Positions 5,950 through 9,179 of a stretch of DNA of 9,179 nt are shown here, one piece after another. The DNA comes from a virus. Lineage: Duplodnaviria; Heunggongvirae; Uroviricota; Caudoviricetes. Under the pieces are notes generated by a model that was not told where the DNA came from, searched no databases, and saw nothing but the letters and a program-made list of their open reading frames with translations. The first letter of the stretch is position 1; each line of letters starts with the position of its first letter. Made by a program: the position numbers and the translations under genes. The stretch lies in the IMG/VR virus record IMGVR_UViG_2537562190_000019. One strand, written 5' to 3'.

Positions 5950-6135
5950 TTACTCCTCATCCTGAATACATGTCACTGTGTGGATAATTACGCCGGATAA
6001 ACCGGCTTTAGCTGATTTGTTAATTACTGTGCTGATTGCAGCCTGGACGTTTTCGGCCTTCACGTTCTGCGTGATGCCAACGGTATAGCCGCGCTTGTTA
6101 ACAGCACGGGAAAAAACGCGGAAGGTTTTAAGCAT
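5950..6135 (-). CDS. Hypothetical protein, 61 aa
   Basis: ATG 6135 with a G-rich Shine-Dalgarno; overlaps the end of the upstream 67-aa gene by 8 nt. Confidence 0.5.
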   Translation of the reverse strand: MLKTFRVFSRAVNKRGYTVGITQNVKAENVQAAISTVINKSAKAGLSGVIIHTVTCIQDEE

Positions 6136-6331
6136 GACGCACCCCCTGACGAATACGAGCGGCGAATACCATCACGCAGCCAGCCGGAGATTGCTGGCGC
6201 GCTTCCTGTTCGCTGGTGGCCTCGATGGTAATCACGCGCGGCTGTGCCGTGCTCAGGGCGATAAAACGCCAGATGTATTTATTCAGGTTGTGCGAGTCCC
6301 GCCCTTGCGGGTGTGTGGTATGATTTCTCAT
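6128..6331 (-). CDS. Small protein, 67 aa, possibly Icd-like (host cell division inhibitor-like); first gene of the leftward operon
   Basis: The C-terminal 67 codons of the 243-aa track ORF, starting at ATG 6331 with GAGGT 4 nt upstream. The rest of that track ORF runs through the divergent promoter and antisense to the regulator gene. The pattern IWRFIALS...ITIEATSEQEARQQ...VMVFAARI recalls Icd-like proteins of P4-type prophages; this is from memory, not a search. Confidence 0.45.
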   Translation of the reverse strand: MRNHTTHPQGRDSHNLNKYIWRFIALSTAQPRVITIEATSEQEARQQSPAGCVMVFAARIRQGVRHA

Positions 6332-6428
6332 AGCTACCTCGATACTTTCGCTATCGTTGGTTGTTAGACGCCCTGCATGTGTTGCGAGCACTGTAGGGCG
6401 TTGCTTAATTTGAGTGACAAAACTCAAA

Positions 6429-6509
6429 CTGTGCGCACAGATTAAAATCATGTGTGCGCACATGTCAATACTTAACATCTCATTTTTTTTGCTGTATTGT
6501 GTGCGCCCA
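6429..6509. promoter_or_regulatory. Divergent promoter/operator region with TGTGCGCACA palindromes
   Basis: Perfect palindromes CTGTGCGCACAG (6429-6440) and TGTGCGCACA (6453-6462), centres 23 bp apart; a degenerate third copy TGTGCGCCCA (6500-6509) about 28 bp before the regulator ATG. An interrupted inverted repeat ACGCCCT-N20-AGGGCGT lies at 6368-6401. Confidence 0.6.
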
Positions 6510-6536
6510 TAAAGTCCATTTAAGTGAGGTGCATCA

Positions 6537-6734
6537 ATGTCTAGCGGTAACACAAACAACAAATCAGCAAAGAAAAATATTCGATTCCCACATGAGCTTA
6601 TAGATGGGATTGATGCCAGCGTTGAACAAGAAAAATTAACTAATCCTAGTGCTAATTTTTCCGCATGGGTCTTAGATGCCTGTGGACGCAAATTAAAATA
6701 TGAACAGCGCCGCAAGGCCAAAGAGCAGGAATAG
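6537..6734 (+). CDS. Small DNA-binding regulator, 65 aa, putative ribbon-helix-helix (Arc/CopG-like); the only plus-strand gene
   Basis: GAGGTG 6 nt upstream of the ATG. KNIRFPHELIDGIDASV...NFSAWVLDACGRKL has an RHH-like strand-helix-helix pattern. Divergent from the operon with operators between, and followed by a clean intrinsic terminator. Confidence 0.6.
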   Translation: MSSGNTNNKSAKKNIRFPHELIDGIDASVEQEKLTNPSANFSAWVLDACGRKLKYEQRRKAKEQE

Positions 6735-6822
6735 TCCACCAGCAAGCCAGCACACTGAGCACATTGCCCACCAGACAGCAAATCGCTATGATGTTCTGGC
6801 TTATGTTTAGTGTTTTCCCATT

Positions 6823-6851
6823 GGCGACCGCCACAGGTCGCCTTTGTTTTA
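6823..6851 (+). terminator. Rho-independent terminator of the plus-strand regulator gene
   Basis: GGCGACC-GCCACA-GGTCGCC (7-bp GC-rich stem, 6-nt loop) followed by TTTGTTTTA. Confidence 0.7.
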
Positions 6852-6869
6852 TGTGTCATATGCTCCCCT

Positions 6870-7094
6870 TTACACTGCCTTACCTGAATTAATGCGATCC
6901 CGGCTTTTAACCCATTCCATAACCTCGGACAGCAGCCACCCTACAGAACGACCGCCCAGATTAAGACGTGACGGAAAGCGCCCTTTTTTCTCCAGTTCGT
7001 AGCGTGTAGTGCGGCACACTCCTGTTAACTTACGGCATTCATCCTCACGGATTACGCGATCTGATAGTGATTGAAATTGTGTATTTTGATTCAT
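6870..7094 (-). CDS. alpA: AlpA-family phage transcriptional regulator / excisionase-like protein, 74 aa
   Basis: LNLGGRSVGWLLSEVMEWVKSR matches the AlpA signature (...GxRSVGW...E...EW...) and the small HTH size fits. GAGGA lies 9 nt upstream of the ATG. Confidence 0.75.
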   Translation of the reverse strand: MNQNTQFQSLSDRVIREDECRKLTGVCRTTRYELEKKGRFPSRLNLGGRSVGWLLSEVMEWVKSRDRINSGKAV

Positions 7095-7129
7095 AAAAAA
7101 ACGTCCTCGAACGTTGCCGAACGAGGACG
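7095..7129 (-). terminator. Intrinsic-terminator-like hairpin plus U7 immediately 5' of the alpA start; its 3' arm contains the alpA Shine-Dalgarno
   Basis: On the mRNA strand: CGUCCUCG-(12-nt loop)-CGAGGACG-UUUUUUU-AUG. Perfect 8-bp GC-rich stem; 5' arm is CCUC (anti-SD), 3' arm is GAGGA (SD). Confidence 0.6.
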
Positions 7130-7156
7130 ATTCTAGGCGGTAGTAAAACGCCGTTT

Positions 7157-7189
7157 GTGTGATATCACACTACCAGCACGTGATATCAC
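7157..7189. promoter_or_regulatory. Paired palindromic operators GTGTGATATCACAC (7157-7170) and GTGATATCAC (7180-7189), centres 21 bp apart
   Basis: A perfect 14-bp palindrome and a perfect 10-bp palindrome two helical turns apart; the second overlaps the TGA stop of the 257-aa gene. A possible -10 (TAGAAT, minus strand about 7135-7130) lies just downstream. Confidence 0.55.
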
Positions 7190-7959
7190 TTTTTACGTTT
7201 TTGTTGAGATTCACGCCCCAAATACTTTTGCCATGTCTGCCAATGTGTTTTTGGAAATTCTATCCCTCTGGATGCAGCTATAGAATCAATTAAATCTGCT
7301 ATTTTAGGTAATGATTCCGTGTCCAGGTCTACATCACCCATTTCTGGAATAAGTTTAATTAAAGAGTAAATAACCTCATTCCTTTTTGACGATGCTTTTG
7401 GGCTATCTTCTGTTATCTTCGGGAAGTCTCCCGTATTTTTTATATTATCTAAATCACTAGCCATCACACACAAATAGTTAACATCAAATTCATAACCACC
7501 CTTACAAAAAACATACATGAGATTATCATCACCATACTTATTCGTAAGATGAGAACATTTTATATATTGTCTCATGCTAAATTCGACATCAGCAAAAACA
7601 TATGCCGGAGTATAATAAAACCCTGATAAGCTGCTAACATAATAACATTTGATAGAATTCCCTACAGGACCAATAATGGCACTATCTAAAAATTCAGTGT
7701 CACCAGTTAAACCAACTGTAAAATTACTTCCAAAAACAGCAGATTCATCATTGAAAGGATATTTTATTAATTCTTCCTCATTACAACCATTGATAAAATG
7801 ACATAATGAAAAATTGAATTTTTTAGCATCAATTTTTGGTATATATACAGAAATATTAAGAGCACCTATATATGCGTAATGATAAAGATCTTTTATTGCA
7901 CAGCCTAACTTTTCTGCCGCTTCAGGTAACGGATAATAGAGTCTTTTAGGTAATTTCAT
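7186..7959 (-). CDS. AT-rich hypothetical protein, 257 aa, unassigned family; N-terminal HTH-like segment plus a ~210-aa domain of unknown function; candidate accessory/defence cargo
   Basis: ATGA start/stop overlap with the integrase stop (7956-7959) and AGGTGG upstream. Composition is strikingly AT-rich (roughly one-third G+C by eye) against roughly half for flanking genes. N-terminal LPEAAEKLGCAIKDLYHYAYIGAL resembles excisionase/AlpA-type HTH. Confidence 0.7.
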   Translation of the reverse strand: MKLPKRLYYPLPEAAEKLGCAIKDLYHYAYIGALNISVYIPKIDAKKFNFSLCHFINGCNEEELIKYPFNDESAVFGSNFTVGLTGDTEFLDSAIIGPVGNSIKCYYVSSLSGFYYTPAYVFADVEFSMRQYIKCSHLTNKYGDDNLMYVFCKGGYEFDVNYLCVMASDLDNIKNTGDFPKITEDSPKASSKRNEVIYSLIKLIPEMGDVDLDTESLPKIADLIDSIAASRGIEFPKTHWQTWQKYLGRESQQKRKK

Positions 7960-9179
7960 TTGGCCACCTTCAGCATAACAATATTTTCATGATTTCCAGC
8001 CAGCACATCGAGACGCTCAACCCATAGATTAAGAGCGTCACGTTTTGCATCAAGATAACGGGAGTGATTATAGACTCGTTGCATTCCTGGCAACTGGTGC
8101 GCGGTAAGCTGCTCCACAACGTGCGGTTCCACGCCTAAATCGTTCAGCATCGTTGTAAACGTGTGCCGGATGTCGTGCAACGTCCAGGGGGCTTGATTAA
8201 TGCGTCTGTGTGCCGTTCTTCCGTACTCTGATACGGATGATTGCCCTTTCAGTTCTCCGAGCAATAATCCCGTGTGCCTGTTCTGCTCCACCAGCTTCAT
8301 GACAAACGGCAAGATCGCTTCCGGTATTGGCCTGAATATTGCTACCTTCGTTTTGCTGTGTTCTTTCGGCACGGTCCAGAGCATTTCTTTAAAATCCCAT
8401 TCCTGGACCTCAGAGCGTCTTAGCTCAGTGGTACGACATCCGAAGACAATCAGGAGGCGAATCAGGGCGCTGTAGTACGGTGGGTAAATTTTTTCATCAA
8501 GGGCGCGTAGTAATTCCCCAAGCTCCTTGTTTGTTAGTACGCGCTCGCTTATTTCTGCTTTTTTCCCAACATCACCGACAACCATATCATCAAGAACGTT
8601 GCTGATTGCGTATCGTCGTTTTCGGCAGTACTTAAGCGCCTGTTTGCATACCTGTAGCAAAAATCCGGCTGATACCGGATTACGCTTAGCAAGCTGGTCA
8701 AAACAGGCCAGCCAGTGGCGTAGCTCGCATTTTTCCAGTGGCATAGCGCCAATCTGGCTAATTATGTGTTTATTGATCCGGCTTTTCAGTGATTCGTAGT
8801 CAGTGCGCTTTTCCTTTGCGTACGATTCAAGCCAGTAAGTGAGCGCTTCCTTAACCGTCACGGGGGCTAACGCGTCCTGTACAGCATGATTAAGTTCATA
8901 GCGCGGATTTTTCCCCTCAGCCAGCCAGGCGCGACACTGTGCCGCTTTTTCCCTGGCAGCTTTCAGGCTCAGATCGGGATAATTGCCCAGCCTCAGACGT
9001 TCCGGTGATATCTGCCTACCAGTTCCGGCCCTGTAAGTGAAATACCAGGTTAACAGGCCATTGGTTGAATGCCTTACGCTAAGGTTGCCACCATCATTAA
9101 AAAAGGTGTTTTTTGTGGTTGGTGATCCGCTTAATTTTCGTAAAAGAGTGTCGCTAAGTCTATGAATTGCCCTGCTCAT
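7956..9179 (-). CDS. int: Tyrosine site-specific integrase, P4-like family, 407 aa
   Basis: N-terminal arm-binding-like region (TWYFTYRAGTGRQ...), catalytic signatures CRTTELRR (Arg), LHDIRHTF (HxxR) and VYNHSRYLD (His...Tyr nucleophile). The ORF starts at the last base of the window, so its promoter and any attL/tRNA lie outside. Confidence 0.85.
   Translation of the reverse strand: MSRAIHRLSDTLLRKLSGSPTTKNTFFNDGGNLSVRHSTNGLLTWYFTYRAGTGRQISPERLRLGNYPDLSLKAAREKAAQCRAWLAEGKNPRYELNHAVQDALAPVTVKEALTYWLESYAKEKRTDYESLKSRINKHIISQIGAMPLEKCELRHWLACFDQLAKRNPVSAGFLLQVCKQALKYCRKRRYAISNVLDDMVVGDVGKKAEISERVLTNKELGELLRALDEKIYPPYYSALIRLLIVFGCRTTELRRSEVQEWDFKEMLWTVPKEHSKTKVAIFRPIPEAILPFVMKLVEQNRHTGLLLGELKGQSSVSEYGRTAHRRINQAPWTLHDIRHTFTTMLNDLGVEPHVVEQLTAHQLPGMQRVYNHSRYLDAKRDALNLWVERLDVLAGNHENIVMLKVAK

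Follow-up and report, generated by a model that had tools for sequence, protein, structure and literature searches.

The gene at positions 7186-7959 (minus strand), which we label X, lies between the integrase gene int and alpA of a phage satellite and encodes a 257-residue protein of an uncharacterised three-domain family. Comparison of the loci that carry it leads us, on balance, to favour a role for X as a regulator of the alpA promoter in a subfamily of enterobacterial satellites (PICIs and capsid-forming PICIs, cf-PICIs), that is, as a core regulatory part of an int-alpA control module rather than as cargo.

The satellite and gene X

The window, by which we mean the whole stretch of 9,179 nucleotides analysed here, covers most of a ~9.5-kb phage satellite that sits between clpS and cspD in E. 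coli O157:H7 and other STEC. The main genes of the satellite are all on the minus strand in the window, in the order int, X, alpA, an icd-like pseudogene, small ORFs, a DUF4222 gene, a D5-type primase, a small terminase and a capsid-like protein. The tyrosine integrase (407 aa, 7956-9179, minus strand) matches Pfam Phage_integrase and Arm-DNA-bind_3, and alpA (74 aa, 6870-7094, minus strand) matches Pfam Phage_AlpA with an E value of 1.9e-16. AlpA is the activator that starts the satellite cycle and serves as excision and induction factor (PMC6092414).

An initial annotation, made from the sequence of the window, had singled out X as an AT-rich gene that overlaps the integrase stop and ends inside a palindrome, and on these points our analysis agrees with it. 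The 257-aa ORF is a real gene with homologs in many satellites. With a GC content of 0.32 it is poorer in G and C than int (0.49) and alpA (0.47); the stop codon of int and the start codon of X share 4 nt (7956-7959, ATGA), and the TGA stop of X falls inside the palindrome GTGATATCAC (7180-7189).

Several other features of the island were recorded. The stretch 734-2449 holds only the small terminase gene and a gene for a capsid-family protein of 310 aa, which matches Phage_capsid weakly (E 1e-6), while of the relatives at the same att site one (L009) has a full cf-PICI head module and another (L065) a ClpP-capsid fusion; the island in the window may be a reduced or a different type of satellite. 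A 243-aa ORF (6128-6859, minus strand) overlaps the annotated icd-like pseudogene, and a YlcI/YnfO (DUF3950) gene (6537-6734, plus strand) lies on the strand opposite to this ORF, directly downstream of alpA, a position that the gene keeps in those related E. coli islands of which the annotation was examined. Beyond the capsid-like gene, the far end of the island (1-733) is non-coding and rich in repeats, with an 88-nt direct repeat (22-109 and 559-646, 95% identical), a 47-nt repeat (212-258 and 266-312) and a 28-nt palindromic unit (527-554 and 645-672). It could be a packaging site or the remnant of lost morphogenesis genes.

Domain organisation and family of X

An AlphaFold model of X with 19 homologs as input (mean pLDDT 78) consists of a β-α-α-β unit (aa 8-40), a beta-rich domain (aa ~50-166), a disordered linker (aa 178-186) and a four-helix C-terminal domain (aa 187-255). 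We refer below to the N-domain (aa 1-45; 7825-7959, minus strand), predicted to be a winged helix of the excisionase/MerR type, with R6, Y8, A14, D24 and H27 invariant; to the middle domain (aa 46-177; 7429-7824, minus strand), which is beta-rich, hypervariable and the proposed sensor; and to the C-domain of four helices, here of type A (aa 187-257; 7189-7401, minus strand), the type of which covaries with the type of operator described below.

The suggestion that the N-terminus resembles an excisionase or AlpA stands as regards predicted fold: the N-domain contains a β-α-α-β winged helix of ~50 residues, and a fold search with it matches excisionases and RDFs. It does not stand as regards sequence, where neither the Phage_AlpA nor the HTH_17 profile matches; hhalign of the N-domain with AlpA gives a probability of 0.2%, and isolated N-domains gave only MerR_1, at an E value of 0.17 and in one of 12 cases. 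Full-length X had no match in Pfam or NCBIfam and only marginal matches, over its first 30-50 residues, in PHROGs and PADLOC, the best in PADLOC-DB being mad1 (E 0.015, 13.6 bits) across 27 residues of the HTH region (aa 8-34). Nothing usable came from searches of isolated N- and C-domains and of ten relatives of variant architecture against Pfam, NCBIfam, PADLOC and PHROGs. For the middle domain no known fold was found, for the C-domain neither an HTH signature nor a fold match, and in X as a whole no enzymatic or toxin-like domain or fold. The earlier statement that the remainder of the protein matches no recognised family is upheld in these four collections and, beyond the N-domain, by structure prediction and fold search.

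In a word-indexed search X matched 19 clusters (90% identity), every one of which comes from Enterobacterales and carries the label "hypothetical". A profile run against 1.84 billion representatives returned 390 clusters (at 50% identity) with E ≤ 1e-3, 54 of them with E ≤ 1e-30; the set includes proteins with only N- and middle domains and proteins with only the C-domain, and no known domain was found in its members. The family, taken as these 390 clusters, is confined to chromosomal satellites, and X was found in none of 50,697 phage records and none of 72,556 plasmid records. A literature search found no paper that describes X. Having no described family and, in that search, no published description, the gene remains the good candidate for an undescribed function that it was first taken to be, and we rate it as a member of an undescribed family of the mobile-element switch regulator kind.

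The three domains have diverged to different extents, with mean pairwise identities of 54% (N), 26% (middle) and 55% (C). C-domains of at least 94% identity occur in combination with at least five types of middle domain, which are 12-48% identical to each other. The N- and middle domains are inherited as a unit (r 0.73), the C-domain is uncoupled from the N-domain (Spearman 0.09), and the correlation of N-domain identity with that of Int is weak (r 0.34). Mantel tests of domain identity against the identity of Int and AlpA were set aside as not discriminating, everything tracking overall divergence.

Traces of exchange are also visible in the DNA. Similarity to the E. coli island L010 extends from alpA through the last ~58 codons of X and ends at 7359/7360, a recombination breakpoint relative to L010 and L007 which is inside the C-domain, ~14 codons past its start, and which leaves the N- and middle domains on the int side. 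A larger cassette (6981-8012), comprising X, the operators, a leader hairpin and the 5' end of alpA, is 100% identical to the island of E. coli O145:H28 RM12581 (L065), with 0 mismatches in 1032 bp, whereas outside it the two islands differ by 5.8% in the rest of alpA and by 1.2% in int, and elsewhere are 87% identical or cannot be aligned. This distribution of mismatches indicates that the cassette was recently exchanged between the two islands. In L009, which lacks X, 472 bp of unrelated non-coding DNA stand in place of the segment 7063-7976. An Enterobacter vonholyi locus (L043, 2603-3570) has X as two ORFs, one for a 71-aa HTH-like protein and one for a 225-aa protein with the C-domain; this split X adjoins a split integrase gene and is still followed by twin GTGATATCAC and an AlpA-like gene, and represents either decay or a natural two-gene version.

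X keeps its place between int and alpA

The order int-X-alpA is found in every X-carrying locus that is long enough (of more than 30 examined, from at least seven genera), the most divergent member, L062, being the sole X-carrying locus in which AlpA was undetected. The loci were found in E. coli (at least three att sites), Salmonella, several species of Klebsiella, Providencia, Pantoea and Enterobacter, and also in metagenome contigs and satellite-sized contigs of IMG/VR. An overlap of int and X, usually of 4 nt, or a near-abutment of the two is kept in most islands. The replication and packaging modules downstream differ widely among X-carrying islands, which places X with int and alpA and not in the cargo region. 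Likewise, in all eight lineages tested the GC content of X is below that of int and alpA, whatever the GC content of the host; hence low GC is a trait of the family and not a sign of recent import.

We also inspected individually a handful of related islands without X. In these the gap between int and alpA measures 364-472 bp (364-419 bp in two of them), is non-coding and holds no alternative cargo. The closest comparison is L009, which occupies the same att site (cspD/yljB) with an int 91% identical and an alpA body 98.5% identical to those in the window, and which lacks X, the palindromes and the hairpin; the same is true of L064. Where a hotspot would show many unrelated gene sets within the same flanks, we find either an X-family gene or a non-coding gap.

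Two genes in the corresponding position of other elements were considered and dismissed as relatives. YfjH, encoded between intA and alpA in K-12 CP4-57, is on the opposite strand and unrelated to X, and EcCIMP1_002, between int and alpA of a published PICI, is a small protein mislabelled as UvrB that falls outside the X family.

The initial annotation had proposed that X is a foreign accessory gene, perhaps with an anti-phage function, in a variable slot between int and alpA. That guess was a reasonable one, as accessory genes of PICIs often lie between int and the regulator (PMC10085698), but the cargo interpretation is now largely rejected: X has the same position across genera, its low GC content belongs to the family, the slot has no other occupants, and no defence-system model of PADLOC matches. 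Invariance of the gene in all related islands, which was to count against cargo, is seen in its position, but not in its presence, some islands being without X, nor in its middle domain, which is hypervariable.

Twin palindromes upstream of alpA

Two copies of the 10-bp palindrome GTGATATCAC form a candidate operator. Palindrome 1 (7180-7189) contains the stop codon of X and is conserved in all 16 type-A loci; palindrome 2 (7159-7168), 21 bp from palindrome 1, ends 64 nt before the ATG of alpA. Across the family the twin palindromes are 21-22 bp apart and read GTGAWWTCAC or GGAAWWTTCC according to the type of C-domain. Sites of the GTGAWWTCAC type occur in 16/16 type-A loci, as two copies in 15 of them; L054 has one clear palindrome and a degenerate second copy. 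In type-B loci the corresponding place is taken by GGAAATTTCC or GGGAATT(T)CCC, and the more distant branch of L059 and L061 has two copies of GGAATATTCC. The spacer between the two palindromes is 10-12 nt throughout type A, type B and L059/L061.

The notion that type-B islands lack operators proved wrong, for there the sites are inside coding sequence. The type-B site GGAAATTTCC is read as 'EIS', repeated 7 codons apart (L057, 2205-2249; C-termini of P0041 and P0037), and this repeat is where the constraints of protein and putative operator overlap.

In 15 of 17 loci palindrome 2 ends at a distance of 60-64 nt from the ATG of alpA, and in the remaining two this distance is 83 nt (62 + 21), whereas the start of palindrome 1 varies between 42 nt upstream and 29 nt downstream of the end of the X stop codon. 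Since the distance to alpA is fixed and the position of the X stop varies, the sites are placed for alpA and not for X.

The C-domain is 41-95% identical within type A and 15-21% identical between types A and B, and the three operator variants pair with three C-domain variants. The recognition helix of the N-domain is not split in this way (KDIIHFGATG in L057, type B; KDIIHYGAIG in L054, type A). We therefore dropped the N-terminal HTH as the binder of the palindromes, as the operators of type B and of L059/L061 follow the C-domain and not the recognition helix, and we take the C-domain as the preferred candidate for operator binding. As the sequence that encodes the C-domain contains or adjoins the operators, covariation could come from linkage alone. 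The sole recognisable DNA-binding fold in X is that of the N-domain, which shows no covariation with the operator, and a palindrome of 10 bp is short for a classical HTH dimer.

Among related satellites the palindromes are found only where X is present. Neither the palindromes nor the −10 hexamer nor the hairpin described below was found in the X-less islands L009 and L064, and as L009 has a near-identical AlpA, these cis elements track X and not AlpA or Int.

Outside this group the motif is more widespread. A contig scan for twin GTGATATCAC with spacers of 10-13 nt found 34 genomes (L015-L048) where ~1 was expected by our own estimate, among them several Myxococcales MAGs and archaea in which no X-like gene lies close by. 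The scan hence fails as an X-specific marker outside the Enterobacterales, with copies in unrelated phyla. Five to six TGATATCA(C) boxes also occur between two ribbon-helix-helix-like (RHH) genes in L066 (8690-8780), which has ~40 similar contigs of 35-61 kb in IMG/VR and belongs to a ~57-kb phage lineage with a GC content of 0.40. No X-like protein was found in this lineage, and the proteins next to the boxes are unrelated. With a GTGATATCAC-type motif in unrelated phyla and the TGATATCA box in an unrelated phage, the motif is not diagnostic of the X family. Mimicry of a helper-phage operator was also considered and found no support, the sole phage lineage with the box having RHH-type neighbours and a GC content of 0.40.

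The putative alpA promoter and its leader hairpin

A −10-like hexamer, TAGAAT (7130-7135, minus strand), can be read 23 nt past palindrome 2. Hexamers of the NANAAT type, picked by eye in other type-A islands and in one type-B island, L057, share this position (TAGAAT, CAGAAT, TACAAT, CAAAAT, TTAAAT and others, 22-23 nt past palindrome 2), without a −35 consensus. We infer that the hexamer at 7130-7135 is the −10 element of an alpA promoter, which a consensus promoter scanner did not call; the centres of the two operators would then be at about −40 and −61 relative to the start of transcription, which is predicted ~7 nt beyond 7130.

The hexamer abuts a leader hairpin (7102-7129, minus strand) with an 8-bp stem and a 12-nt loop, the 3' arm of which holds the alpA Shine-Dalgarno sequence GAGGA. 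RNAfold gives the hairpin −19 kcal/mol, and compensatory changes are found at all eight stem pairs among 15 islands. In the window it is followed by a run of seven T (7095-7101), and a T-run after the hairpin is seen in the E. coli and Salmonella islands. The loop (7110-7121) contains a GTTC-N7-GTTC doublet like the doublets of the att arms. Its orientation in the window, L010, L011 and L050 is opposite to that in the other islands (GAAC...GAAC), as though the loop could flip by virtue of its palindromic stem, and it is possibly an AlpA site.

The att arms themselves have GTTC-N6-GTTC doublets and GTGTAGTCA arm repeats near both ends of the island. Both also occur in L009 and belong to the Int/AlpA machinery, and the GAAC/GTTC doublets were rejected as sites for X because of their presence there. 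No X-specific repeats were found at the island ends; the only ones are those at the alpA promoter, at a distance of ~2 kb from the att end. Just outside the ends of the window, the island is flanked by an imperfect direct repeat of 73 nt (L001, 7076-7148 and 16397-16469). The repeat contains GTGTAGT(C/T)A arm-type repeats and GTTC-N6-GTTC doublets, islands with and without X have the same layout upstream of int, and it is similar to the 'doubled motif' described in the attP of HE-PICI.

A proposed model for the control of alpA by X

We propose that X is made together with the integrase by way of the overlapping stop and start codons and that it binds the twin 10-bp palindromes, probably through its C-terminal helical domain. 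Once bound, X would control transcription of alpA, the gene of the activator with which the satellite cycle starts. By analogy with Stl of the SaPIs, the hypervariable N- and middle part would be the most plausible sensor of a helper-phage product. The hairpin that covers the ribosome-binding site, with its T-run in E. coli and Salmonella, would insulate alpA from read-through: a transcript running on from int and X would form the hairpin, with termination and a hidden Shine-Dalgarno sequence as the outcome, whereas one from alpA's own −10 would start inside the 5' arm and escape it. In this model DNA binding by X, the domain that binds, the start of transcription, the sensing of a helper and the sign of regulation are all inferred from sequence.

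If X is made constitutively with Int, it cannot be an unconditional activator of the induction gene, and should instead be either a repressor relieved by the helper or an activator that depends on a helper signal. Given that X regulates alpA, a repressor has about an even chance in our view, and a conditional activator is the less probable of the two. The lack of a −35 in the promoter and the placing of the sites at −40 and −61 would suit an activator; constitutive co-expression with int and the analogy with Stl would suit a repressor.

Rather more tentatively, X could be the missing helper sensor and master regulator of a large class of Gram-negative PICIs and cf-PICIs, with an exchangeable N- and middle part that reads the helper and a C-module that holds the alpA promoter; we regard this wider role as possible and would not yet call it probable. 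Were it true, swaps of the middle domain would re-target a satellite to new helpers, the cassette of X, operators and hairpin would move between satellites as a plug-in induction switch, and the middle domain would represent a new sensor fold. More generally, the X family sits with a matched putative operator at the control point of helper sensing, an open question for Gram-negative satellites, and X is a concrete and cheaply testable candidate for the satellite switch. Confirmation would explain helper specificity, offer components for the engineering of delivery vehicles based on PICIs and add a sensor domain without a known fold. Even if X were a mere local repressor, an annotation could replace 'hypothetical protein' and X would no longer be counted as cargo.

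Alternative explanations

The fold of the N-domain, which matches those of excisionases and RDFs, allows X to be read as an integrase accessory factor or RDF that acts with Int at att and promotes or blocks excision, the C-terminal part and the palindromes being secondary. The conserved 4-nt overlap would then couple its translation to that of int, and the co-inherited N- and middle domains do lie on the int side of the breakpoint. We consider such a role unlikely nonetheless. The island ends have no repeats specific to X, their doublets and arm repeats being present equally in L009, and islands that share the att site and have a 91% identical int do without X. Moreover AlpA is already the known excision and induction factor (PMC6092414), known RDFs are small single-domain proteins while X has 257 residues and two further domains, and N-domain and Int identities correlate weakly. 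As an accessory cargo gene, on the other hand, X would be an anti-phage, abortive-infection or helper-interference effector in an int-alpA hotspot, its middle domain would recognise phage, and the palindromes would be autoregulatory or incidental. This we hold to be very unlikely: the operators are positioned relative to alpA, the synteny is strict across genera and across different replication and packaging modules, related islands offer no diversity of occupants, and X contains no enzymatic or toxin-like domain, with a best PADLOC match of only E 0.015 on 27 residues. The hypervariability of the middle domain and the lack of a family match do speak for an effector, as does AT-richness, which is however a trait of the family.

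The palindromes could also be the landing sites of a helper or host regulator that switches on alpA, X being a neighbour with another role such as modulator or decoy. Helper phages induce alpA through an unidentified factor (PMC6092414), a promoter that lacks a −35 and has its sites at about −40 and −61 would fit an incoming activator, the same box serves as an operator-like repeat in an unrelated phage lineage, and operators that adjoin the C-domain would be co-inherited with it anyway. Set against this are the restriction of the palindromes, among related satellites, to those with X and the match of three operator variants with three C-domain variants; moreover, the phage lineage with the box has a GC content of 0.40 and no X-like protein, and X is missing from the 50,697 phage records. 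Pure linkage of this kind seems to us quite unlikely, and regulation of the alpA promoter by X is the reading that we retain.

Comparison with known systems

Published maps of Gram-negative PICIs show an integration zone of int and AlpA only (PMC10111431), and the global repressor of these elements has been called 'unclear' and the helper-derived inducer of alpA is unidentified (PMC6092414). The X-less zone of PICIs and cf-PICIs (int, gap, alpA; EcCICFT073 and EcCIEDL933 by description) shares with the window the int clade, the att site (cspD/yljB in L009), a near-identical AlpA, the GTTC doublets and arm repeats, and the downstream icd, ylcI, DUF4222 and primase genes. It differs in that the non-coding region upstream of alpA is swapped in the window for X, the twin palindromes, the −10 hexamer and the Shine-Dalgarno hairpin.

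The N-domain of X resembles in predicted fold the excisionases of the AlpA/Vis/Xis/RdfS type (MerR-superfamily winged helix; PF05930 Phage_AlpA, PF12728 HTH_17), with no match in sequence. X is three to four times larger than these proteins, has two extra domains and is followed immediately by a bona fide AlpA gene; they are small and act at att-arm repeats, and X shows neither property. X likewise departs from the architecture of the MerR family, in which an N-terminal winged helix is followed by a long coiled-coil dimer helix and a C-terminal effector domain and the operator lies in a 19-20 bp spacer between −35 and −10.

In phage lambda, CI acts at PRM/OR from tandem operators, activating or repressing from ~−42 and further upstream. 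Taking the transcription start proposed here for alpA as reference, X would share with CI two operators on the same face of the DNA, about two helical turns apart and abutting the −35 region of a weak promoter, and also a modular build with separate parts, predicted in the case of X, for DNA binding and for oligomerisation or sensing. The two proteins are unrelated, the CI operators are of 17 bp as opposed to 10 bp, and X has no RecA-cleavable domain.

A closer parallel is found in Stl/Rpr of SaPIs and Gram-positive PICIs, with which no relationship in sequence or fold was detected. These regulators are divergently transcribed from operators in a shared intergenic region, whereas X is co-directional with and upstream of its supposed target, which is the promoter of an activator (alpA), and the putative operators overlap the 3' end of the regulator's own gene. 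In other respects the two are alike. The genes of both adjoin int and separate it from the genes that start the cycle, both show allelic diversity among otherwise similar islands, and both are modular, with a DNA-binding part (predicted for X) and a highly divergent part, which in Stl binds a helper-phage protein and in X may by analogy do the same. Stl/Rpr are gatekeepers of induction (summarised in PMC6092414), as we propose for X, and appear to be its closest analogue in both function and position.
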